A stretch of DNA of 64,000 nt from Planctomycetota bacterium (lineage in GTDB: Bacteria; Planctomycetota; UBA1135; GCA-002748355). Made by a program: the position numbers and the translations under genes. The stretch covers positions 571 to 64,570 of the forward strand of contig JALSSW010000070.1 of the NCBI GenBank assembly GCA_026984035.1, given 5' to 3'. This document shows positions 43,682 to 56,124 of the stretch, in pieces. Positions within the stretch are counted from its first letter, which is position 1, and the number at the start of each line of letters is the position of its first letter. The notes below the pieces were generated by a model. That model worked only from the letters and a program-made list of their open reading frames with translations. It did not search any database and was not told the origin of the DNA.

Positions 43682-44911
43682 ATGTCGGAGTCGCCCTCAA
43701 GGAATGGTCAGGCGAAACTTTCTCTCCCATCCGGAGAGAAAGTAGGGGGGGGCATTCCCTGGAAACTCAAAGAAGCCTTCGCTTCTTTCGGCAGTTCCGG
43801 GCCACGGCTTTTTTTTGCCCCCGGTCGCATTAACTTGATCGGGGCCCATCTGGATTACAACGGTGGCTCGGTTTTGCCCGTCCCCATCCAGCAGGGGACC
43901 TATGCTGCCATTGCCCTGCGTAAGGACCATCGCATCCGGCTCAAGAGTTTGGACTTCGTCGAAGAGTTCGATTTGGACGGAAAAGCCCTCCCTCCTGCTT
44001 CCCAACTGGGCTGGGCCGCCTACCCCATCGGAGTTTGGCTCGAAGCCCGCGAAATGGGACACCCATTGATGGGATTCGACCTGGTTTTGGGAGGGGACCT
44101 GAAGCGGGGTTCGGGGCTCTCCTCTTCCGCGTCCCTGGAGGTGGTCATGGGGTTGGCCTTGCTGGAATGCGCGGAGCAATGCGTGGATCTCGAAGAGCTG
44201 GCCATGCTAGGATTCCGGGCTGAAAATGGCTTTGTTGGCGTGAAGTGCGGAATTATGGACCAGTTCGCATCGGCGCTTGGGCAGTCAGGGAAGGCTCTTT
44301 ATCTCAACTGCGCTACTCGGGAACATCGCCATGTACCGCTCGGTGAGGATCTGGAGATCCTGGTTTTGGACACCCATAAACCCCGGGAGCTGGTGGGCTC
44401 GGAGTTCAATCTTCGGGTGGAGCAATGTCATGAGGCTTTGGCCGTTTTGCGGGTGGGGACTCCGGAGATCGGCCATCTAGCGGCGTTTTCTTTGGAGGAT
44501 GTTGAGAGGGCGCGGGCGGAACTGGGGGCGGTCCTTTTTAAGCGGGCGCGGCATGTGGTGACGGAGGTGGATCGAATTGAGCGGGCGGTGGGTGCCCTGG
44601 AGCGGGGGGATTTGGAGGAATTTGGGAGCCTGGTTTATGCCTCGCACCAAAGCTGCCGGGATGATTATGAGGTGTCCTGCCCTGAACTGGATTTCTTGGT
44701 GGAAGGGGTCTGCCAGGCGGATGGGGTGCTGGGGGCGCGTTTGACCGGGGCGGGTTTTGGCGGTTGCTTGATTGCGCTCGCAAGGCCGGGGGCTTTTGGG
44801 CGGGAAGAGGAGCGGCGGCTTGCGGGAGCTTATGATCGGGCCTTTGGGAGGCCCTTGACGGTGCAGCACTTACAGCTTGGTGCGGCTCCCCACGAACTGG
44901 ATCTAGGCTGA
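43682..44911 (+). CDS. galK: Galactokinase
   Basis: APGRINLIGAHLDYNGGSVLP (GalK signature) and GGDLKRGSGLSSSASLEV (GHMP motif). The start is ATG 43682, alternatively 43652. Confidence 0.93.
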   Translation: MSESPSRNGQAKLSLPSGEKVGGGIPWKLKEAFASFGSSGPRLFFAPGRINLIGAHLDYNGGSVLPVPIQQGTYAAIALRKDHRIRLKSLDFVEEFDLDGKALPPASQLGWAAYPIGVWLEAREMGHPLMGFDLVLGGDLKRGSGLSSSASLEVVMGLALLECAEQCVDLEELAMLGFRAENGFVGVKCGIMDQFASALGQSGKALYLNCATREHRHVPLGEDLEILVLDTHKPRELVGSEFNLRVEQCHEALAVLRVGTPEIGHLAAFSLEDVERARAELGAVLFKRARHVVTEVDRIERAVGALERGDLEEFGSLVYASHQSCRDDYEVSCPELDFLVEGVCQADGVLGARLTGAGFGGCLIALARPGAFGREEERRLAGAYDRAFGRPLTVQHLQLGAAPHELDLG

Positions 44912-46237
44912 GGAGAGGATCCGGCGAGCGAGGCGGCGGGCCTCTCGAACGCAGCCTGCGACAGAGCTTCGGAGGTAGGAGAGGCCGAGTAGCTCGAGGC
45001 CGGGGAAGTTTTTCTGAGCTTCTGCGAGGGCTTGGAGTTTCTCGCTATGCCCAGGTTGGTAGAGAGGAAGGGCCTTTGGGCGGTGGCTGACCTCCACCAG
45101 GCAGGGCTCTGCGCTGAGGCCTGTGAGCGAAGAAAGGGTGTCCCTTACCTGTTGGACCAAGGCCTTGTCGCTTTGGGATTCGATGCCGGGGTTGCGGGCG
45201 CCGCCAAGGAGGGCGCGGAGGAGGACTTTGCCTTTTGGGGCTCTGCTGGGGAAGAGCCGCGAAGAATAGAGGACACCCAAGATCTGGTTTCGGGCCTCTT
45301 TTCGTGGGATCAGGAAGCCGAAACCGCGGATCTGTTGGGGGAGATCCGTTTCGTTGAAGGCAAGGTGGACGGAGGAGACGCTGACAAAGGGGATGGAGCC
45401 GGTAAGAGTGGCCAGGCTGGGCGAGAGGGTTTGGAGGAGGCGGGATGCCGGGATTGCGGGAAGGGCGAGGGCGAGCCTTTGAGCCTCGAAAGTCCTTCCA
45501 TCCTCGGCGCGAACCCGGTAGGTCGAAGCTTTTCGATCGAGGGAGACTGCACGGAAATTGTCGTGGACGCAGGGGCCGAGGGCTTCTTGGAGGGCGTGCA
45601 CAAGTTGGGAGTTTCCCCGGGTAAAGCTGAAAATTTTCCCGGGTTTCATTCCGACCTTGCGGGCGCCTCTCAGGACGCTGCCGAATCGCTGCTCAGCCTC
45701 AAAGAGCTTGGGAAAGCAAGCTTGTGTTTCCATCTTTTCGGGGACACCCGCATAAACTCCTGAGGCAAAAGGATCGGCCAAGCGGTCGAGGATTTGGGGG
45801 CCAAAGCGCCTGGAGATAAAGCTGGCGAAGTCTTCGCGGGGGTCGGTCCCCCGGCGGACAAAGGGCTCGCCGAAGAGCCGGAGCTTCGCCCCAAAGCTGA
45901 GAATGGGTGTCCCCAAAAGTCCACCCGGGCCCATGGGGAGGGCTTCGAGGCGACCCTTGTGGGCGAGCCAGCGGAGCTTTGCATCCTGGGGAGGGCGCTG
46001 GATTTCGTCACAAAGACCTAATTCCTGGACGAGACCATCGAGGAGTGTCCCATCATCGACGAAGGTCTCCGGTCCACGCTCCAGCTGAAATCCGTCCACG
46101 CTTAGGGTCTCGATCAACCCCCCCAGGCGGGGGGCAGCCTCTAGAAGGACCAGTTGATCCATGGGTGTCCCCCCCTGCAGGAGGGCGTGGGCGAAGGCGA
46201 GGCCGGAGATGCCGCCGCCGAGGACGATGGTGTTCAT
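44903..46237 (-). CDS. hemY: FAD-dependent protoporphyrinogen/coproporphyrinogen oxidase (HemY type)
   Basis: MNTIVLGGGISGLAFAHALL dinucleotide fold. 444 aa. ATGA overlap with the hemH stop. Confidence 0.88.
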   Translation of the reverse strand: MNTIVLGGGISGLAFAHALLQGGTPMDQLVLLEAAPRLGGLIETLSVDGFQLERGPETFVDDGTLLDGLVQELGLCDEIQRPPQDAKLRWLAHKGRLEALPMGPGGLLGTPILSFGAKLRLFGEPFVRRGTDPREDFASFISRRFGPQILDRLADPFASGVYAGVPEKMETQACFPKLFEAEQRFGSVLRGARKVGMKPGKIFSFTRGNSQLVHALQEALGPCVHDNFRAVSLDRKASTYRVRAEDGRTFEAQRLALALPAIPASRLLQTLSPSLATLTGSIPFVSVSSVHLAFNETDLPQQIRGFGFLIPRKEARNQILGVLYSSRLFPSRAPKGKVLLRALLGGARNPGIESQSDKALVQQVRDTLSSLTGLSAEPCLVEVSHRPKALPLYQPGHSEKLQALAEAQKNFPGLELLGLSYLRSSVAGCVREARRLARRILSSA

Positions 46238-47232
46238 GTGGAAACCTTTGCGCCCAAAGCGTTTGCGGCCAGGCGAGCGAGGGTGGCCACGAAGTCTGGG
46301 TCTGCGTTGAGAGATTCGCTGCGGATAAAGGACTGGATGCCAGATTGTTCAGCCAGGGCGCGCATCTGGATGTCAAGTTCATAGAGGGTTTCCACATGAT
46401 CCGAAACAAAGGAAAGTGGAGCGAGAACAACCGAATGGATGCCCTCCCCTGGGAGGTCTCGGAGAACCTGATCGAGGTAGGGCTTGGTCCAGGCGACGGG
46501 GCCAACTCGGCTTTGAAAGGCCAGCCGGTGAGGGAATCCATGCCGTGCCTCGGCTTCCACCAAGCCCATGCAAGCCCGGACCTCCGAGAGGTAGGGATCC
46601 CCGCGGCGGACAAAGCTCATGGGTGTCCCATGGGCGACATAGAGGACAAGGCTGCGCTCAGTCAGCTCTGGTGGGATCTTGCGAAGAGCGCGTTTGAGTC
46701 TCCAAGCAAGGCAGCTGATATAGCCGGGGTCGTCAGCCCAACGGGAGATCTTGAGAACCGGGACATCCCAGGAGATGCGTGCAAGAGCGCGGGAGAGTTC
46801 GTTCTCGCTGGATCCAGTAGTTGTAACCGAATACTGAGGGTAGAGAGAAAAAGAGAGCAGTTGTTGGACACCCGCTTTGCGTGCGCTTTGCAGGGCATCA
46901 TCAATGTTGGGCCTGGCGTATCGCATGGCGGGAAGACAGATACAGTTCCCTTCCATTCCATATTCCCGAAGTCCGAAGAGGATCCCGCGTCCTTGAGCCT
47001 CCGTCCAGGGAAGGACAGGAGATCCGCCCCCCATAGCCATGTAGTTGCGCCAGGCTTTTGGCGCGCGGCGCTTGGACAAAATCCGGGCAAAGGGCTTTTG
47101 CAAGAATCCCGGCATCCGGAAGATCTCAGGGTCTGAAAAGAGGTTTTGTAAGAAGGGACGCATCTCCTCTTCGCAGGTAGGTCCTCCGAGATTGTGGAGG
47201 ATGATGGCAGTGCTTGGTCCCTGATTTGGCAT
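46234..47232 (-). CDS. hemH: Ferrochelatase
   Basis: IILHNLGGPTCEEEMRPFLQNLFSDPEI, YVAHGTPMS and SFVSDHVETLYELD. Confidence 0.93.
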   Translation of the reverse strand: MPNQGPSTAIILHNLGGPTCEEEMRPFLQNLFSDPEIFRMPGFLQKPFARILSKRRAPKAWRNYMAMGGGSPVLPWTEAQGRGILFGLREYGMEGNCICLPAMRYARPNIDDALQSARKAGVQQLLSFSLYPQYSVTTTGSSENELSRALARISWDVPVLKISRWADDPGYISCLAWRLKRALRKIPPELTERSLVLYVAHGTPMSFVRRGDPYLSEVRACMGLVEAEARHGFPHRLAFQSRVGPVAWTKPYLDQVLRDLPGEGIHSVVLAPLSFVSDHVETLYELDIQMRALAEQSGIQSFIRSESLNADPDFVATLARLAANALGAKVST

Positions 47233-47259
47233 CGTTCAAAACGGAAAGAAGGTGGGGAA

Positions 47260-48675
47260 TTAAATGGTTCGAGAAAACATTGGACCCTTGTTTTTGCGTT
47301 GCCCTTCCAGATAAGCGTCGAAAGGCATGGAAAGGTTTCGCAAGAAAAGGCGGCCGAGAGGAGGGACTTCGATGTGATCCTCATGAACCCGGACCAGACC
47401 ATCCCCTTCCATTCGACGTAAATCTTGGAGCGCGTCCTGATACCGTTCTACAAATGGTTTTTGTCCTGCCTTTTCATAATCTTCAAAACGGACTTGGTAA
47501 TTGCACATCAGGTCCAAAATGATTCTTCTTCGTTCCTCATCATCTGCCGACCGTCTCATTCCTCGATGGATGGGAAGGTGTCCTTCATCAATAGCCCGGG
47601 TCCAACTCTTTAGGTCCTTCTCGTTCTGCCCAAATGCACCGCCGACCTCTCCAATCGAAGTCATCCCAAACATCAACATGTCCTCCCCCGCGCGTCCTTT
47701 GCCCATGCGTGTTGTATAGCCCATAAAATTCCGGTGGAGCCTTCCTTCGTCCGAGGCCAGGGCCAGGGAGTCTTCCGGTCGTGCGAAGTGGTCAAAGCCA
47801 ATGTGGCGGTAGCCCCCGCTTTCAAAGCGTTCCAACGAAAGGGTCAGCAAGCGGAGCCTCTCCTCCGGACTGGGGAAAGATCCTTCGGGGAGGGCCTTTT
47901 GGTGCTTCTTTACCCAAGGCACATGAGCGAAGCCATAGCAGGCAACGCGGTCGACCTTCCAGTCCAGGATGGTGTCGATCGTATTCGAGAATTTCCCCGG
48001 CTCTTGATAGGGGAGGCCATAGACCAAATCCACATTGACGCTTTCAAAACCGAGCCTTCGGGCTTCATCGATCAGGGCCTTTGTCATCTCCTCACTTTGA
48101 ATCCTGTGGATGGCCTTCTGCACCTTAGGATCAAAATCTTGGATACCCATGCTGATGCGATTGAAGCCCAGTTTCCGCAAGACTTCCAGTTGCTCGAAAT
48201 TGGTGACCCTTGGGTCGACCTCGATGCTGACTTCGGCCTTCGGGGTCAAAGGGAAGTGTGCGCTGATGCCGACAAAGAGCCGCTCGATTTCTTCCGGTGG
48301 AAGATAGGTGGGTGTCCCCCCACCCCAGTGGTGTTGTCCGATCTTACGTCGATGCGGCAAAGAGGAAGCCACCCGCTCAACTTCTAGAAGGAGCCGATCC
48401 ACATAAGCCCTTGCTTTTTCACGACGCTGGGTGATGACAACGTTGCAAGCACAGTAAAAACACATGGACTCGCAAAAGGGCAAGTGCACATAGAGTGAAA
48501 AGGGTTCCTCTGGGCTTTGATCCGCCCTGGCAAGAGCTTCGCGCCAGTCTGTTTCCCCAAAGGAATCGTTCCAGACAGGGGCTGTTGGATAGCTTGTGTA
48601 TCGGGGACCCGGTTTGTCATAGGTCTCGAGCAGACCGGCGAGGGCCTTTTCTGCTTCTTTTCCAAAAGTGCTCAT
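47260..48675 (-). CDS. hemN: Oxygen-independent coproporphyrinogen III oxidase HemN (radical SAM)
   Basis: GPRYTSYPTAPVW N-terminal motif. HLPFCESMCFYCACN (CxxxCxxC plus a fourth Cys). GGGTPTYL. 471 aa, i.e. full-length HemN rather than the shorter HemW. Confidence 0.92.
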   Translation of the reverse strand: MSTFGKEAEKALAGLLETYDKPGPRYTSYPTAPVWNDSFGETDWREALARADQSPEEPFSLYVHLPFCESMCFYCACNVVITQRREKARAYVDRLLLEVERVASSLPHRRKIGQHHWGGGTPTYLPPEEIERLFVGISAHFPLTPKAEVSIEVDPRVTNFEQLEVLRKLGFNRISMGIQDFDPKVQKAIHRIQSEEMTKALIDEARRLGFESVNVDLVYGLPYQEPGKFSNTIDTILDWKVDRVACYGFAHVPWVKKHQKALPEGSFPSPEERLRLLTLSLERFESGGYRHIGFDHFARPEDSLALASDEGRLHRNFMGYTTRMGKGRAGEDMLMFGMTSIGEVGGAFGQNEKDLKSWTRAIDEGHLPIHRGMRRSADDEERRRIILDLMCNYQVRFEDYEKAGQKPFVERYQDALQDLRRMEGDGLVRVHEDHIEVPPLGRLFLRNLSMPFDAYLEGQRKNKGPMFSRTI

Positions 48676-49715
48676 GAGAAATCCCTCAGGTGTTGGACGA
48701 GGGCTTGGACCGATTCGAAAGGGGTTTTCGGATCAAAACCATGCCCCAAGTTGAAGATGTGGGGGCGGTTTTTTGCTGCTTCCACAACGGCCTCGGCCTC
48801 GGAATAGATCGTTTGCATATTCCCAAAGAGTGCGGTCGGATCAAGGTTACCCTGGATAGCAAGTCCCTTTGGGAGCCTTCCGTCAATCTCTTTCATCGAA
48901 AGGCGCCAGTCAACCCCGAGACAGTTAGCCCCAGTCTGCACCATGCTTTCGAGATGCCCGGCACAACCATTGACGAAATAGATCACTGGAATTCCATGCG
49001 CTTTGAGCTCCTGCACAAGCTTACGGGTTGCCGGAAGAACAAGGCGGGCGAAGATCCCAGGTTCCATAACACCAGCCCAAGAGTCGAAGATCTGGATCCC
49101 ATCGCAGCCTTTCTCGAACTGGAGTTTTCCCAGCGCGATTGCCGGTTCGACGAGAGCATCCATGAGCTCCTTGAACCAATCGGGGTGGCTCCATGCAGCC
49201 GCACGTGTACGGTTCCATGTGCGGCTTCCCTGCCCTTCGATTGCATACGCCCCGAGGGTGAAGGGGGCCCCGACAAAACCCAGGAGTGCCCGCTCGGGTG
49301 CCAGGGATTCTCGGACTCGCTGCACAGTTTCGGCGACCACATCAAGGGGCCGGGGATCTACGATGTCTCGAAGCCGATCTACGCTCTCTCCAGGTCCAAG
49401 CGTCCATTCCAAAACAGGCCCTGGCTTGAATGCAACTTTGTTCCCGTTGGCCAAGATCTGTGTCAGCAAGTCCGTAAACAAAATTGCCGCGTCCACATCA
49501 AAGCGTTTCATGGGCATGAGGGTGACTTCTGCCGCCAAGGCTGGGTCGCGCATCAAGTCCAGAAAGCTCTTCCCTTCGCGGAGCTTACGGTATTCGGGCA
49601 GGATGCGCCCGGCCTGCCGCATAAACCAAATGGGGAGGCGTTTGGGCCGTTGTCCTTGCAGCACATCCAGAATAGGAGAGGAAGACTTGGTCCTTGCTTC
49701 GGATTCTGTGTTCAT
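48672..49715 (-). CDS. hemE: Uroporphyrinogen decarboxylase
   Basis: PIWFMRQAGRILPEYR signature. ATGA overlaps at both ends. Confidence 0.95.
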   Translation of the reverse strand: MNTESEARTKSSSPILDVLQGQRPKRLPIWFMRQAGRILPEYRKLREGKSFLDLMRDPALAAEVTLMPMKRFDVDAAILFTDLLTQILANGNKVAFKPGPVLEWTLGPGESVDRLRDIVDPRPLDVVAETVQRVRESLAPERALLGFVGAPFTLGAYAIEGQGSRTWNRTRAAAWSHPDWFKELMDALVEPAIALGKLQFEKGCDGIQIFDSWAGVMEPGIFARLVLPATRKLVQELKAHGIPVIYFVNGCAGHLESMVQTGANCLGVDWRLSMKEIDGRLPKGLAIQGNLDPTALFGNMQTIYSEAEAVVEAAKNRPHIFNLGHGFDPKTPFESVQALVQHLRDFS

Positions 49716-50407
49716 GGTTCAAACCTATAGCCGACGCCCCGAAGCGTGTGGAAGTGCCTTGGTTTGCGCGGGTCTTTTTCAAAAAGTTTCCGAAAACGTG
49801 CAATGAAATTGTCAATGGTCCTTGGACTCGGATATGCATCTCTGCCCCATAGGTCATCAAGGATCTCTTTTCGGGAAACGACCTTACCTGGCCTTGCTAC
49901 GAGATATTGCAAGAGAGAAACTTCCTTTCGGGTGAGTGGCACCTTTTCTGAGTTAAAGGTCATAGCCTCGTAAGTCGTCGGGTCTACTGTATTGCCCCCA
50001 AAGGAAAATTCTTGGGGGCTTTGCACTCCCTGGATGTGTTTAGATCTCCGAATCTGGACACGGACCCTGAGCAATAGTTCCTCCAGATGAAAGGGCTTCC
50101 CTAGATAGTCATCCGCCCCGAGGCTGAGACCTTTAATGCGATCCTCGTCTTCTGCGCGCGCCGAAAGGATGAGGACAGGCAACTCCGTATCGATCGCTCT
50201 CAGTTTTTTGAGAAGTTCCAATCCGGACATCCCCGGGAGCATCAGGTCCAGGAGAAGAAGGTCGATTCCTCCCTGTTGGAGGCGCTCCCAACCTTGAAGA
50301 CCGTCAGGGATCAATTCAGTTTGATACCCCTCGCGCCGGAGGTTTTCTGCGATCAGTTCTCCGAGGAATGGTTCATCTTCGATAATGAGGATCCAAGGAG
50401 GAGTCAT
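49712..50407 (-). CDS. OmpR/PhoB-family response regulator embedded in the heme operon
   Basis: Receiver domain (ILIIEDEPFL...DLLLLDLMLPGMSG) and winged-helix output (LTRKEVSLLQYL...TLRGVGYRF). Confidence 0.9.
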   Translation of the reverse strand: MTPPWILIIEDEPFLGELIAENLRREGYQTELIPDGLQGWERLQQGGIDLLLLDLMLPGMSGLELLKKLRAIDTELPVLILSARAEDEDRIKGLSLGADDYLGKPFHLEELLLRVRVQIRRSKHIQGVQSPQEFSFGGNTVDPTTYEAMTFNSEKVPLTRKEVSLLQYLVARPGKVVSRKEILDDLWGRDAYPSPRTIDNFIARFRKLFEKDPRKPRHFHTLRGVGYRFEP

Positions 50408-51591
50408 GCTTCATTCCTCATTTTGGGAAGGTGAAGCGAAAAGGTTGTCCAGCTCTCCTCTATGGCGTTCTCTCTATTTGAGAGCAAAACGAGCTGGCCA
50501 CCATGATCCAGAGCAACACGCTTGGCAAGGAAGAGTCCAAGGCCCGAACCTCCGGTTTCTTGGGTGTCTTTGCCTCGAAAGAAGCGATCGAAAACTCGGT
50601 CCCGATCTTCCTCGGGGATTCCTCCTCCAGTGTTACTGATCTGAAAAGAGAGGTTGTTTTTTTGTTCCTCGAGCTTGAGACGGACCTTGCCCCCCTTGGG
50701 ACTGTATAGCCTTGCGTTGTCCAACAGGTTGGTCAGGCATTGGTGGAGAGCTGCTTCGTCTCCGAGGACCCAGGTGTTGCGACCTTTAATCTCACAGGAG
50801 AGGTCCAGGGCTTTCTCCGCATAGCGGACTCGTTGTTCATTGACGATCTCTTCGAGAAGGCGGACCAGGTTGACCTTCTGTTTTGTGTCGGGACGCTTTT
50901 GTAAGGATGCGGTCTTGAGGAGGTTTTCAATCTGGTTCTGGAGCCGTTCGACTTCGAGAAGCATGTTGCCATAAAAAACCTCCGCCCGTTCCTTTGAGAT
51001 CGTTCCCGTTTTGAGCGTTTCCAGGGCGAGTTTTAGAGAAGATAGCGGAGTTTTGAGTTCATGGGTCGCCCCTGCCAGAAAGCGCTGGTGCCCCTTGCGG
51101 ATCTCGATGTCGTTCTGAAGAGTTCGATAGAGGAGAAGAACCCCAAGGATAACGAGTGTTGTGAGCGTGCCGCCTTCCCAATAAAACATGCGGCGTTTCC
51201 GATGTGTTTCCTCGAGGATTGTGGAGAGGGCCGAGACTCGCGGTTGGATAAGAAATTGGGCGAGGGGATCCTTTGGCCCGACCAGTTCACCACCTTTGCT
51301 GGCGAGCTTGGAAGCATTTAAGTCCGCTGCCTTTTCGAGGGTCCTCGATCTGCGTAACTCCAGGTCTGGAAACTGCGGTCCGACATCTTGGTTCCAGGCT
51401 TTCTCGATATTCTTTTGCTGTGAAAAACGGTGGAGGAGAACGAGGGCTTGATAGCAGCGCCCCCTAAGGATTTCACGTTTTTCTTGGGCCGTTCGCCCGG
51501 TCTCACTGAGAGCGAAGAAGACCCACCAGACAACTTGTCCTATGCAGAGGGCGACAAGGATCAGCAGGATTGTCTTTGGGAGAAACCGCAT
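50404..51591 (-). CDS. Two-TM sensor histidine kinase embedded in the heme operon
   Basis: TM1 at about aa 6-28, a roughly 110-aa external loop, and TM2 at about aa 141-156. H-box FLAGATHELKTPLSSL with His at about residue 177. N/G boxes (LLDNARLYSP, GGSGLGLFLAKRV). Confidence 0.9.
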   Translation of the reverse strand: MRFLPKTILLILVALCIGQVVWWVFFALSETGRTAQEKREILRGRCYQALVLLHRFSQQKNIEKAWNQDVGPQFPDLELRRSRTLEKAADLNASKLASKGGELVGPKDPLAQFLIQPRVSALSTILEETHRKRRMFYWEGGTLTTLVILGVLLLYRTLQNDIEIRKGHQRFLAGATHELKTPLSSLKLALETLKTGTISKERAEVFYGNMLLEVERLQNQIENLLKTASLQKRPDTKQKVNLVRLLEEIVNEQRVRYAEKALDLSCEIKGRNTWVLGDEAALHQCLTNLLDNARLYSPKGGKVRLKLEEQKNNLSFQISNTGGGIPEEDRDRVFDRFFRGKDTQETGGSGLGLFLAKRVALDHGGQLVLLSNRENAIEESWTTFSLHLPKMRNEA

Positions 51592-51618
51592 CGCGAGAAA
51601 AAGGGTTGGCGCTCAAGT

Positions 51619-52896
51619 CTAGGAGGATTCAAAAAAACGTGCCCATGCCTCTACCAGGCCCAGGCAATCGTCTGAATTGTGTGCGGTGGAGATGAATCCG
51701 ATCTCAAAGGCGCTGGGGGCTATGTAATAACCCTGCTCGAGAAGTGCGTGGAAGAGCTGTCCGTAAATCTTAGGGAGATTGTCGGGAAGGGCCTCGGCTG
51801 CGCGGGGAGGGGGACCCTTGGGAGCAAGCCAAAAGAGGGAGCCGATGCGGATGAGATCAACCGGTGGATTGAGGGGTTTGCAGCGTTCGTTGAAGGCGCT
51901 CTCGAGTAGTTGCCCTTTTTGCTCAAGGCTTTCCCATGCGTGCGTCTCGAGGAGGGTTTCCAGGCAGGCGAGGCCCGCAGCCATTGCGACGGGGTTTCCT
52001 GAGAGAGTGCCTGCCTGATAAACAGGGCCGGTGGGCGCGAGCAAGTCCATAAGCTCGGCGCGACCGGCAAAGGCTCCGACGGGGAGCCCCCCTCCGATGA
52101 TCTTCCCGAAAGTCACCAAGTCCGGAGTGATCCCATAGTGTGAGCTTGCTCCTCCCTGGCCCAAGCGAAAACCGCTGATGACTTCGTCGAATAGGAGAAG
52201 GGTGCCGTGTTTTTTTGTCAGGGTTCGCAGCTTTTGGAGGAAGGCCGGGCGCTGGAGGAGGAGGCCGTTGTTTGCGGGGACCGGCTCGATCAGAGCGAGG
52301 GCACATTCGCTTCCGTATTGGTCAAAAAAGGTTTCGAGGGCTTCATCGTCGTCCAGAGGGAGTAAAGATGTGAGGCCCGTAAACTCTTGGGGGACCCCTG
52401 CAGAGGAGGGTTTGCCGAAGGTGACCAAGCCCGAACCTGCAGCGACCAGGAGGGCGTCGGAGTGGCCGTGATAGCAGCCGGTGAACTTGAGAATGCGCTT
52501 CCTGCCAGTGGCTCCTCGAGCGAGTCGGACGGCACTCATGACGGCTTCAGTTCCCGATGAGACAAAGCGAACCTTTTCTGCCGCCGGGTGGAGAGCGTGG
52601 ACAAGTTCGGCGAGTCGGACTTCGTCCTTGCAGGGTGCACCGAAGCTTGTGCCGAGCGCGGATGCTTTTTGGACGGCCTCGACAATGCGAGGATGGGCGT
52701 GCCCGAGGATCAGGGGCCCCCAGGACATGACAAAGTCCGTGAAATTCCTCCCCTCGGCGTCCGTGATGCTTGCACCCTGGCCCTTCTCGAAAAAGATGGG
52801 TGTCCCACCGACAGCCCCAAAGGCTCGAACCGGAGAGCTGACTCCACCAGGGATTACAGCTTTTGCGCGTTCATACCATTCTGCATTCTGGCCCAT
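51619..52896 (-). CDS. hemL: Glutamate-1-semialdehyde 2,1-aminomutase
   Basis: IPGGVSSPVRAF and the class-III aminotransferase body. FGKIIGGGLPVGAF contains the PLP lysine. Confidence 0.95.
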   Translation of the reverse strand: MGQNAEWYERAKAVIPGGVSSPVRAFGAVGGTPIFFEKGQGASITDAEGRNFTDFVMSWGPLILGHAHPRIVEAVQKASALGTSFGAPCKDEVRLAELVHALHPAAEKVRFVSSGTEAVMSAVRLARGATGRKRILKFTGCYHGHSDALLVAAGSGLVTFGKPSSAGVPQEFTGLTSLLPLDDDEALETFFDQYGSECALALIEPVPANNGLLLQRPAFLQKLRTLTKKHGTLLLFDEVISGFRLGQGGASSHYGITPDLVTFGKIIGGGLPVGAFAGRAELMDLLAPTGPVYQAGTLSGNPVAMAAGLACLETLLETHAWESLEQKGQLLESAFNERCKPLNPPVDLIRIGSLFWLAPKGPPPRAAEALPDNLPKIYGQLFHALLEQGYYIAPSAFEIGFISTAHNSDDCLGLVEAWARFFESS

Positions 52897-52899
52897 GTT

Positions 52900-54540
52900 T
52901 TACTCACTCGTGGAAGTTGTTCGTGAAGCCCCCGTGCCGAGAGCCTCTAAGAGGCTGGGGAGATCGGGGGATTCTAAAACCCGGTCGGGTTCGTGCCCCA
53001 TTTCCCGTAGAGCTTTCGCTGTGGTGGGGCCGATCGCAAGTACTTTGCCTGAAACCTGTTGGGGCGGGAGTAAGCGAGCCGCTTTGGGCGACAAATAAAG
53101 GGTGTCCCCCATTGGCTCGGGGGATGAGGGAGTGGGTTGGATGCGGTAGAGAGGGAGCTGGAGGACTTTGAGTCCAGCCTTTGAGGCGGTTTCAAAGCTT
53201 GCAGGGTTTCCTTCTTGGGCACCGAAGATGGCGATGTCTTGATAACCTTTCTCGATTGCGAGAAGAGCCATTCCATGGCCGTTTTTCTCGTCGGCCTCGA
53301 GGACCTTTAGGTTGGGGAAGAGGGATTCCGCATGGAGGCGGGAAGCTGGGCCGGGAACAATGACCGAAGGATGGGTGTCCCTCTTGGCTTGGGCGAGAGC
53401 GTTGTGGAGGTGGGGAGCGGCTTGGTCGAGGGCATTGTGGCTTGAAAAGAGGAGGGCATCCATTTCCGCGCATTGGGTCCATGTTTCTCGAGGAACCTGA
53501 AGTGGAACGATGTCATAGACCCTGTGCTGATGGATGGCCGCGCCTGCGGCCAAGATGTGGTCGGCGAGCAGGGACCGGCCGCCCCCTCCTATTAGGTGTA
53601 GAACCCTGTCTTTTAATGGTTTATCAAGAGCTGGGGCCAGGGCCTTGCTGGCTTCCTGGATCAAGGAATGGGTGTCCCCTTTGATCAGAACCAGTGAGAT
53701 ACCGGGGGCTTGGTCGTCCCGACCATAGGCAAAGGCATCGAGACGGTAAGCTCCGTTGGGTTCTATTGTGGCGAGGGTCCCAAGGGGAAGGCTGCATCCG
53801 CCGCCGAGGGCTTGGAGGATGCCTCGTTCAATGTCTGTGAGGGTTCGGGTCTTCGGATCCTCGAGTTTTTTGAGGATCTCGAGAGTTTGGCTGTCCCCCT
53901 CACGGGCTTCGAGGCCGAGAGCTCCTTGGCCTGGGGCGCCGGGAAAGAGGCGGGGAGAGAGGTCAAAGGCGATGAGGTCCCGCGTCTCGAGCCCGAGCCG
54001 TTCCAGGCCTGCCTGGGCGATGAGGATCGCGTCGTAGTGTCCTTCCTGCAATTTCCTGACACGAGTAGGGACATTGCCTCGAAGGTCGAGGATTTGGAGA
54101 TCGGGGCGAAGATCGAGAAGGCGCCGGCGGCGGCGGAGAGAGCTTGTTCCAACCTTGGCTCCGTCATTAAGGGGAAGCTCGCCGCAGGCTGCTCTCTTTT
54201 TATGGAACGCTCCTTTCCGAAGGAGGAGACGCTCTCCGACTGGGCCGCGGGCTGGGACGGCTGCGAGGACCAGTCCCGGTGCCAAGGTGACGGCGAGATC
54301 TTTTAGGCTGTGAACCGCAAGGTCGAATCGGTTTTCCAGGAGTCCCTCTTCGATTTCTTTCGTGAAGAAGCCCTTGCCCAGCTCGGGAGTGAGAGGGATG
54401 TCCTGGATCCTGTCTCCGCTGGTCTTGACGATAACGATTTCACAGCGAATCCCTGCCAAGGCTTCGAGTTTGCCGGAGATATGCTTGGCCTGCCAGAGTG
54501 CAAGGTCGCTTCCACGAGTTCCAATGCGCAACGTTTTCAT
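52900..54540 (-). CDS. hemC: Fused porphobilinogen deaminase / uroporphyrinogen-III synthase (HemC-HemD)
   Basis: The N-terminal ~300 aa begin MKTLRIGTRGSDLALWQAKHI and include LGGGCSLPLG (HemC). The C-terminal ~240 aa form a HemD-like two-lobe domain. 546 aa in total. Confidence 0.85.
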   Translation of the reverse strand: MKTLRIGTRGSDLALWQAKHISGKLEALAGIRCEIVIVKTSGDRIQDIPLTPELGKGFFTKEIEEGLLENRFDLAVHSLKDLAVTLAPGLVLAAVPARGPVGERLLLRKGAFHKKRAACGELPLNDGAKVGTSSLRRRRRLLDLRPDLQILDLRGNVPTRVRKLQEGHYDAILIAQAGLERLGLETRDLIAFDLSPRLFPGAPGQGALGLEAREGDSQTLEILKKLEDPKTRTLTDIERGILQALGGGCSLPLGTLATIEPNGAYRLDAFAYGRDDQAPGISLVLIKGDTHSLIQEASKALAPALDKPLKDRVLHLIGGGGRSLLADHILAAGAAIHQHRVYDIVPLQVPRETWTQCAEMDALLFSSHNALDQAAPHLHNALAQAKRDTHPSVIVPGPASRLHAESLFPNLKVLEADEKNGHGMALLAIEKGYQDIAIFGAQEGNPASFETASKAGLKVLQLPLYRIQPTPSSPEPMGDTLYLSPKAARLLPPQQVSGKVLAIGPTTAKALREMGHEPDRVLESPDLPSLLEALGTGASRTTSTSE

Positions 54541-54613
54541 GAAAACTCCACGGGACCTGCCCTGAGAGAAAAAGAGAAGGATGAGTGTAGCAGCGGATCC
54601 TCGACATTTCAGG

Positions 54614-55828
54614 CTACGCAGTTACAGGCAAAAGTCGGGTTTTTAAATCTTTGAGATGCAAGTGTGCGTGTGCCTTGGCCATTCTCAGGAATGCGTCCTC
54701 GAGGTGAGATTTGTGAACTTCGCTCAGTTCTTCGAGCTGGAAGATGCGTTCGATCTCTTCTTTGGCGAGCCGGAGATGTTCTTGGCGGATGTGATCCAAA
54801 CCGAAGGCTTTGGCCTTTTGCCGATGGATAAAGCGTGTGATCCCTCGCTCCAAAATCGGTGTTGCCTCTTCGGCTAATGCTTGGCGTTCTTCGAGGTTTG
54901 CATCACTGATTTCTCGAAGTTGGTCCATGTCGAGGAGTGTTATTCCTTCGATCTGCGTGCAGCTTTTGGCGATATTGGGAGGGGATCCAAGGTCGGTAAG
55001 GACAATTGGGTGTTGTTGGCTGAGGACTTTTGCGCAGGTCGGATCGATGATCGGCTCCGTGGCGCTGACTGCCGTGAGAATGGCGTCAAAGCTGTGTCGG
55101 CCTTTGAGAACATCCGTGAGCGATAGGGTCGTTCCTCCATGATCATCGGCGAGATCCTGGGCTTTCGCGGCGGTGCGATTCACAAAGAAAAGTTCGCAGG
55201 GACTTCCCCTCAGGAATGCATCGGCGGCTTTCTTGGCCATGATTCCTGCTCCGACAATGGCGATGCGGGGGTTCTTGATTCCCTGTTTGTTGAGGAGGTT
55301 TCTTGTGGCTGTGACTCCAACGGAGGCAACGGAAACTGCTTGGGTTCCGAGCCCGGTCTTTCGACGGATTTCTTTGGCTGTTCTGAGGGCGGCTTGAAAC
55401 ACTTCCTCAAGAAGGGGGGTTATGTCCTTGCGCTCCCTGGACGTTTGAACCGCCAGGCGAACTTGACCGGAGATTTGGTTTTCGCCGACAACCATAGATT
55501 CAATCGAACTCGCGACTCGGAAGAGGTGCCTGGCGGCTTGGATTCCTTGGAGTTGTTGACCGGGAACTTTAGAGAAGGCCTGAAGTAGAGATGCGGGGAT
55601 GTGTGGGGTTCCCTGTTCGAGTTCGAGATAGATTTCTCTCCGGTTACAGGTGCACAGGAGAACAAAGCCTTTGATCCACCCCTGCGCCTTCTCCTGAATC
55701 AGGACCTGGAGCAGTTCCTCAGGGCTTCCGACCTCCCCGATTCTACTGGGGGGGGTAAAGCGGTGGCTCGTTCCAATGAGATGGAGATTCTTCACTCTTG
55801 CCTCCGGTTGTCCAACAGAGCTAGGCAT
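54614..55828 (-). CDS. hemA: Glutamyl-tRNA reductase
   Basis: LLCTCNRREIYL active-site Cys motif. IAIVGAGIMAKKAA NADPH fold. An in-frame GTG at 55795 lies 5 nt after GGAGG and may be the true start. Confidence 0.93.
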   Translation of the reverse strand: MPSSVGQPEARVKNLHLIGTSHRFTPPSRIGEVGSPEELLQVLIQEKAQGWIKGFVLLCTCNRREIYLELEQGTPHIPASLLQAFSKVPGQQLQGIQAARHLFRVASSIESMVVGENQISGQVRLAVQTSRERKDITPLLEEVFQAALRTAKEIRRKTGLGTQAVSVASVGVTATRNLLNKQGIKNPRIAIVGAGIMAKKAADAFLRGSPCELFFVNRTAAKAQDLADDHGGTTLSLTDVLKGRHSFDAILTAVSATEPIIDPTCAKVLSQQHPIVLTDLGSPPNIAKSCTQIEGITLLDMDQLREISDANLEERQALAEEATPILERGITRFIHRQKAKAFGLDHIRQEHLRLAKEEIERIFQLEELSEVHKSHLEDAFLRMAKAHAHLHLKDLKTRLLPVTA

Positions 55829-56124
55829 TATCGAGTGGAGTTTCCTCGCATTGTCAGCCCAGTGTCATGGGGGGACTTTTTCCTCTTCTGCGACAAATTG
55901 CGCCATAACTGGGGATTGGCTTGGGAGTTCGGAGCCTAGCGGGGTTCTTCTCTCCACCGGGAACCCCCATGCCTTCGAAAAAAACAGCCCAATGGCAAGC
56001 TTTGGGGACTGCTTGGAAGGTTTCCTTGCCAGGGTTTGCTATACTTCTCCTCTTCCAAAACAAGGATTCTTCCTGCCTTCCTTTTAGACATCTTGACCGT
56101 TTTCTTCTTTTCTTCCGGACTCGA

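Follow-up and report, generated by a model that had tools for sequence, protein, structure and literature searches.

The window analysed here, a 64-kb stretch of DNA from a Planctomycetota bacterium (source assembly G000, 3.8 Mb in 210 contigs), contains a heme biosynthesis (hem) operon with a two-component system (TCS) inside it. Nine minus-strand open reading frames (ORFs) run in the order hemA, hemC/D, hemL, histidine kinase (HK), response regulator (RR), hemE, hemN, hemH and hemY, and a direct repeat that we call the hem-box lies directly upstream of hemA. Gene identities were assigned from Pfam and NCBIfam profiles. The first gene, hemA (54614-55795; GlutR_N and Shikimate_DH domains, TIGR01035; longest ORF from an ATG at 55828), encodes glutamyl-tRNA reductase and is followed by a hemC-hemD fusion (52900-54540) that joins hydroxymethylbilane synthase and uroporphyrinogen-III synthase (Porphobil_deam and HEM4) in a single protein of 546 amino acids (aa), and by hemL (51619-52896; TIGR00713 / NF000818) for glutamate-1-semialdehyde aminomutase. 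The sensor kinase gene (50404-51591) encodes a 395-aa protein with HisKA and HATPase_c domains and the RR gene (49712-50407) a 231-aa regulator of the OmpR/PhoB family with Response_reg and Trans_reg_C domains, residue D54 and recognition helix RTIDNFIARFRKLFE; we describe the two below as HemK-type and HemR-type. Downstream lie hemE (48672-49715; uroporphyrinogen decarboxylase, TIGR01464), hemN (47260-48675; oxygen-independent coproporphyrinogen III oxidase of the radical S-adenosylmethionine (SAM) class, TIGR00538), hemH (46234-47232; ferrochelatase, TIGR00109) and hemY (44903-46237; the flavin adenine dinucleotide type of protoporphyrinogen oxidase, TIGR00562). The original prediction, made from the sequence, had proposed this order and these gene coordinates, and both agree with the ORF list and the profiles. 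It had also noted a full-length radical SAM HemN beside HemY and HemH, and a score of 534.8 bits against the TIGR00538 cut-off of 325 identifies a true HemN.

As further predicted, four junctions (HK/RR, RR/hemE, hemE/hemN and hemH/hemY) are ATGA overlaps and the remaining gaps fall between 3 and 73 nucleotides (nt); read from the sequence, these gaps are 73, 3, 27 and 27 nt. In a consensus scan neither promoter-like sites (2, with 3.3 ± 1.7 expected) nor terminator-like sites (19, with 17.5 ± 4.3 expected) were in excess, and none of the latter lay on the operon strand inside the intergenic gaps. The nine genes are probably carried on a single transcript. The absence of hemB from the cluster was likewise borne out, as hemB was found on a separate contig (G000 C95:41957-42913) within a different string of genes, with no hem-box found near it.

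The hem-box, TGACA-CTGGGC-TGACA, occupies positions 55852-55867 on the minus strand and is the predicted binding site of the regulator. Scanning the window with TGACANNNNNNTGACA gave one perfect match (TGACACTGGGCTGACA), on the operon strand directly upstream of hemA, 24 nt from the ATG and 57 nt from a downstream GTG. When up to two mismatches were allowed the pattern was not enriched in the window (26 matches, 36.6 expected), and the signal therefore lies in its position and conservation. A direct-repeat box of OmpR type had been proposed as something to look for upstream of hemA; it is present there and is conserved across genomes. TGACA-N6-TGACA is also the experimentally defined binding site of HemR, the regulator of the Leptospira hem operon (PMC11426443).

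A hem-box with no more than one mismatch precedes hemA in the same place at 17 loci, and these allowed the surrounding promoter to be compared. In the window a -10-like hexamer, GATAAT (55827-55832, minus strand), lies 19 nt downstream of the box, with a predicted transcription start near 55820. An xAxxxT hexamer begins 19-20 nt past the box in 15 of the 17 loci (variants elsewhere include TATATT, TAGAAT, TATAAA and TATACT) and at any other offset from 12 to 26 in none or one. This fixed distance places the hem-box in the -35 region, a position likewise occupied by the pho boxes of PhoB. We also considered a chance duplication of a -35 element as the origin of the box and rejected it, as the half-sites are kept while the spacer drifts and the spacing to the -10 element is fixed.

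The same element bears on the start of hemA. The ATG at 55828 overlaps the conserved -10-like hexamer, whereas the GTG at 55795 has a GGAGG 5 nt upstream and encodes the N-terminus MKNLHLIGTSHR, which agrees with the MxxLxLIGTSH N-termini of relatives. For these reasons hemA most likely starts at GTG 55795 rather than at ATG 55828; the boundary at 55828 given originally is that of a real ORF, but probably not of the protein.

We then surveyed synteny by tblastn of the nine proteins on the loci of relatives. The same gene order, HK-RR included, was found within the family in G002, G003, G004, G005 and G007 and in other families of the order in G011, G027, G033, G025 and G026; G001, of the same genus, has HK-RR-hemE on a contig of 2.3 kb. 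Of 140 genomes sampled evenly across the phylum, 78 have hemE, and in seven of these, namely G025 and six others, a gap of 1.7-2.0 kb separates hemL from hemE; all seven have HK-RR in that gap. The order hemA-(C,D)-B-L-HK-RR-E-N-(H)-Y is present in the Planctomycetota metagenome-assembled genome (MAG) GCA_029250885.1 and in an 'FCB group bacterium' MAG, GCA_024231695.1. The synteny survey that had been proposed for HK-RR between hemL and hemE thus finds the pair there in G001-G005, G007, G011, G025, G026, G027, G033, G064, G117, G131, G141, G162, GCA_029250885 and the FCB-group MAG. Since the same order, with HK-RR, recurs in so many related genomes, its conservation is far beyond chance. Within the family the regulator is 59-63% identical and hemL 63-67%, with the kinase at only 30-38%. 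These data support the view that the HK-RR pair is an integral, conserved part of the hem operon.

The hem-box is conserved alongside the pair. It precedes hemA in all 14 embedded-pair operons checked, those with the hemA upstream region (13 planctomycete genomes and the FCB group MAG), as a perfect box in 12 and with one mismatch in two (G026 and G064). A lone perfect box lies directly before hemA in G002, G003, G004, G005, G025, GCA_029250885 and the FCB MAG, and also in G117, G131, G141 and G162. Both half-sites are kept at exact spacing between genomes, while the 6-nt spacer and the flanks diverge. Relatives in the same family have one or two perfect boxes per 3.6-3.9-Mb genome, one of them always at hemA.

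Operons that lack the embedded pair allow the box to be separated from gene adjacency, and three of seven have a box (0-1 mismatch) before hemA. G006, of the same family, has hemE next to hemL and the pair on a different contig; the regulator of that pair also has the recognition helix RTIDNFIARFRKLFE, and the perfect box is kept at hemA. G031 has an unlinked pair with a one-mismatch box at hemA and another upstream of the kinase gene, and G017 an unlinked pair whose HemR-like regulator (47% identical, helix RTVDNFVVRLRRRFE) accompanies a one-mismatch box at hemA. No hem-box was found in the hem operons of G168, G073, G163 and G066, where the best regulators are only 40-43% identical and have a different recognition helix. 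Hence the presence of the box tracks a HemR-like regulator, not gene adjacency. As a negative control, 80 generic OmpR-regulator loci (1.19 Mb), among the matches listed from a query alignment of ten hem-linked regulators, contained one perfect box and no hemL or hemE flank. In G163 a perfect TGACA-N6-TGACA does occur at L151 2537-2552 (G163:C117), about 375 nt downstream of the gene for its best, 40%-identical regulator.

The kinase contains only HisKA (PF00512) and HATPase_c in Pfam, with no HAMP and no PAS domain. A first transmembrane helix (TM1, residues ~8-28) is followed by a loop of ~112 aa (~29-140), a second helix (TM2, ~141-160) and the phospho-acceptor His177. Topology and Pfam thus agree with the earlier description of an external loop of ~110 aa and an H-box ~20 residues past TM2, with no HAMP or PAS domain between. 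An AlphaFold2 model built on a 30-sequence alignment (mean predicted local distance difference test (pLDDT) score 79.6) predicts a single continuous helix, 119-194, from the loop through TM2 and past His177, which would leave no HAMP domain. In the modelled loop (pLDDT mostly 84-93, with one ten-residue block at 69) two long helices flank a small alpha/beta insert. A fold search of the PDB with the full kinase model returned only cytoplasmic cores, made of dimerization and histidine phosphotransfer (DHp) and catalytic ATP-binding (CA) domains (WalK/YycG, HK853), and was uninformative for the loop. The sequence H177-E-L-K-T181 forms an HExxT motif in which H177 is invariant and T181 is invariant in close orthologues and nearly so in a wider alignment; the two residues correspond to H98 and T102 of HemK, the kinase partner of HemR (PMC11426443).

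The original prediction had assigned sensing to the external loop or to the membrane helices. The first of these is doubtful, as the loop varies among hem-embedded kinases from ~20 aa (G011, G027 and G033) to ~160 aa (FCB MAG) and its counterpart in Leptospira biflexa is dispensable (PMC2266917). The distance from TM2 to the histidine is constant at 18-26 aa, and the signal is probably sensed by the membrane or juxtamembrane part. The loop may still have a lineage-specific role, since its length and a few residues (A49, P75, L77, R133, M135, F136 and E139) are kept within the family of the window.

Within TM1, W22 and W23 (window positions 51523-51528) are invariant in 30/30 aligned kinases and may be a membrane-embedded signature of the subfamily. 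An hklep primer published for L. biflexa (PMC2266917) encodes VWWWILG at the corresponding point of TM1, a likeness that is only suggestive. An exact search of the genome contigs with this primer gave 0 matches.

In the regulator D54 is invariant and corresponds to D53 of HemR (PMC11426443). In a tree of 110 regulators (one mistranslated row, OWN_C103, was disregarded) a starred branch sets 67 generic regulators, the PhoB of this genome among them, apart from a group of 43 that takes in every one of the 18 hem-linked regulators together with the unlinked HemR-like proteins and 15 more. Homologues about 50% identical to the regulator occur in Bacteroidia and Thermoanaerobaculia and are not hem-linked; identity at that level therefore does not define the family.

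A further claim of the original prediction, that known heme-responsive TCSs all act from separate loci, does not hold. In L. interrogans hemL and hemE flank the pair LB014/LB015 and share a transcript with it, and the same hem linkage is found in Bdellovibrio (PMC2266917). With this precedent the hemL-HK-RR-hemE layout is of a known kind. The L. biflexa pair, Hklep/Rrlep, is required for growth without hemin or 5-aminolevulinic acid, and in Leptospira pair mutants the expression of hemA/E/L is 2-10-fold lower; the L. biflexa kinase has two TM helices, a dispensable loop of 32 aa and the phospho-acceptor His98 (PMC2266917). In Leptospira phospho-HemR activates the hem operon, 5-aminolevulinic acid triggers a T102-dependent phosphatase activity of HemK that shuts the system down, the cytoplasmic part of HemK alone is locked in the kinase state, and HemR represses at least one target, hmuO (PMC11426443).

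The planctomycete system resembles this one. Both have the pair between hemL and hemE, in the layout of L. interrogans LB014/LB015, a two-TM kinase that lacks a cytoplasmic sensor domain and has its phospho-histidine ~18-20 residues past TM2, a threonine at His+4 (needed in Leptospira for phosphatase activity), an OmpR/PhoB-type regulator, TGACA-N6-TGACA upstream of hemA and a fused hemC/D in the operon. They differ in the loop, which is 32 aa in L. biflexa (HemKR there being LEPBIa1423/1422) and ~112 aa here, and in gene content, the planctomycete operon lacking hemB and including hemH and hemY. Furthermore, the second box of the planctomycete lineage precedes another sensor kinase, and we found no evidence here for the Leptospira regulon members hmuO and exbBD, the perfect boxes of the genome lying only at hemA and at the second kinase gene. 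By this analogy the pair is best placed with HemKR, as a putative planctomycete member, and does not represent a new type of system.

HssRS of Staphylococcus and Bacillus and ChrSA/HrrSA of Corynebacterium are also TCSs dedicated to heme homeostasis, and HssS shares the build of two TM helices around an extracytoplasmic loop. For these systems the signal is heme itself, and they act from separate loci, chiefly on genes for efflux (hrtAB) or for heme utilisation. In HssS a HAMP domain follows TM2, and the adjacent hrtAB pump is under the control of HssRS; ChrS and HrrS are multi-TM HisKA_3 kinases paired with NarL/LuxR-type regulators. In contrast, the operon described here has a biosynthetic target and the pair has only hem genes as neighbours, the two-TM kinase is of the HisKA (PF00512) type without HAMP, and the regulator is of the Trans_reg_C type.

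Taken together, we consider it probable that the pair is a HemKR-type feedback module, working like HemKR, inside the operon that it controls. The autoregulation proposed originally for the embedded pair is very probably correct, the support for it being the conserved operator-like direct repeat directly upstream of hemA. In this model the HemK-like membrane kinase would phosphorylate the HemR-like regulator by default. The phosphorylated regulator would then bind TGACA-N6-TGACA as a tandem dimer, in the -35 region of the sole promoter before hemA, and drive transcription of all nine genes, including its own gene and that of the kinase. As a product of the pathway builds up, the kinase would switch to an HExxT-dependent phosphatase mode, the regulator would be dephosphorylated and the operon turned off. 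By analogy with Leptospira, the product acting as signal may be 5-aminolevulinic acid or a later porphyrin. It appears likely that the regulator physically binds the hem-box and that it activates rather than represses.

Several points weigh against this interpretation. The 3.8-Mb genome is expected to contain 2-6 perfect hem-boxes and has two, one before hemA and the other before a second kinase gene, so that the motif is not over-represented genome-wide. TGACA is the reverse complement of TGTCA, the core of the PhoB pho box, and a repeat of this kind might thus serve any PhoB-like regulator. The hem-linked regulators cluster in the tree (6 changes against 16.9 when shuffled) but are not strictly monophyletic. 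The receiver domain of the regulator matches PDB entry 4q7e, which we take to be the receiver domain of HemR, at 73-76 bits and only about 47th-51st in rank, below some 50 OmpR-family receivers (RegX3, 98 bits), a result that neither supports nor excludes orthology across phyla. Homology to HemK and HemR would rest on position, architecture and the shared DNA motif, and not on direct sequence comparison; a tblastn search of PLSDB with HemE found no Leptospira replicon. Finally, a hem-box that overlaps the -35 element could mean repression and not activation.

The last point leads to the alternative that survives best, although we regard it as unlikely: the phosphorylated regulator, bound over the -35 element, would block RNA polymerase, and the signal would relieve or impose this repression. 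The proximal half-site (cTGACA) does resemble a -35 hexamer 19-20 nt from the -10 element, and a protein bound there could occlude it; in Leptospira, HemR represses at least one target, hmuO (PMC11426443). However, the Leptospira hem operon itself is activated by phospho-HemR (PMC11426443), and hemA/E/L expression there falls when the pair is mutated (PMC2266917). A spacer of 19-20 nt and the absence of a T before TGACA also make a poor stand-alone sigma-70 promoter. Promoters of this type are usually dependent on an activator, as pho-box promoters are.

Somewhat less probable again is convergent recruitment, in which the planctomycete hem operon would have independently acquired an unrelated PhoB-like pair that happens to recognise a TGACA direct repeat, as PhoB-type regulators do, and that works like HemKR without being homologous to it. 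This would fit the best NCBIfam profiles, all of them below cut-off, which are PhoB, RppA and MtrA in the case of the regulator and CreC, PnpS and PhoR in that of the kinase, and would also fit the non-hem regulators contained in the subfamily of hem-linked ones. On the other hand, Leptospira has an identical insertion point, kinase architecture and box, and three independent coincidences are unlikely; the occurrence of the same arrangement in the FCB-group MAG fits an old or mobile shared module.

It is highly improbable that the TCS genes merely ride in the operon as passengers and control unrelated targets, the box being bound by another factor or forming part of the promoter. Binding of the regulator to the box is a prediction and the second perfect box of the genome precedes a kinase gene and not a heme gene, both of which such a reading would accommodate. 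Against it, the box co-occurs with HemR-like regulators whether these are linked or unlinked and is absent where there is no close HemR-like regulator, the half-sites are held at exact spacing across a drifting spacer, and the motif is identical to the experimentally mapped HemR site.

The PhoR/PhoB system of E. coli and others offers a further parallel for the promoter, with an OmpR/PhoB-family regulator, a direct repeat of 11-bp periodicity in place of the -35 element, 19-20 nt or roughly two turns of the helix upstream of the -10 element, and a TGTCA/TGACA half-site core; the box here differs in reading TGACA on the strand of the transcribed gene, opposite to the way a pho box is usually written. 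That the embedded pair is itself the phosphate system of the cell was rejected, since, although JGI names its homologues PhoR/PhoP and TIGR02154 (PhoB) is the best NCBIfam profile for the regulator, that match scores 177.9 where the equivalog cut-off is 296.2, the kinase lacks a PAS domain and the pair is not linked to pst/phoU. A higher-scoring PhoB (253.7 bits) is encoded together with PhoR directly after phoU-pstSCAB, in a phoU-pstS-pstC-pstA-pstB-phoB-phoR locus outside the window (G000 C176:22169-30627).

The other perfect hem-box of the genome (TGACATCCTCTTGACA) lies outside the window, 23 nt upstream of the gene for the second membrane kinase (G000 C155:8908-10491). The N-terminal domain of this kinase (~320 aa) lies between two hydrophobic segments and is most likely external, and TM2 links directly to HisKA; there is no adjacent regulator gene, and in the G000 assembly the gene contains two apparent frameshifts. 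A second perfect box also precedes the orthologous kinase in G002 (L139) and G003 (L141). More tentatively, HemKR and the hem-box may form an ancient or horizontally spread module for feedback control of the C5 pathway to heme across several phyla, represented by Planctomycetota, a lineage of the FCB group, Leptospira and Bdellovibrio. In this module the signal would be read by the conserved TM/juxtamembrane core instead of the hypervariable loop, and in the planctomycete family of the window the regulator would also switch on the second kinase, in a two-sensor circuit for heme homeostasis.

HemKR has so far been treated as a Leptospira-specific form of heme regulation, and in the literature searched nothing connects HemKR or the hem-box to Planctomycetes. 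The gene position, kinase build and DNA box recur here in numerous planctomycetes and at least one further lineage, which opens the mechanism to study outside pathogens, in harmless organisms. The combination of a HemR-like regulator with TGACA-N6-TGACA at the -35 position of hemA would provide a portable rule for predicting control of heme synthesis in uncultured bacteria. In addition, loops of 20-160 aa around a constant TM2-DHp core amount to a natural experiment that bears on the site of sensing.

Some further boxes were seen away from hemA. In G004 the second perfect hem-box (L142, G004:C79:144173-147188) precedes a gene for a ResB-like protein (PF05140). Proteins of this family handle heme and take part in cytochrome c biogenesis, and this gene is a plausible further member of the regulon. 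Contig ERZ25072999 (8 Mb) contains a similar kinase-regulator pair that is not hem-linked and is directly followed by a perfect hem-box (L038 8671-8686), which has the spacer of the G005 box (TGACAGTCGCGTGACA) and lies upstream of a gene for a 366-aa protein without a Pfam match. At the far end of the operon in the window, hemY (minus strand, ending at 44903) and galK (plus strand, ending at 44911) are convergent, and their 3′ ends overlap by 9 nt (44903-44911).

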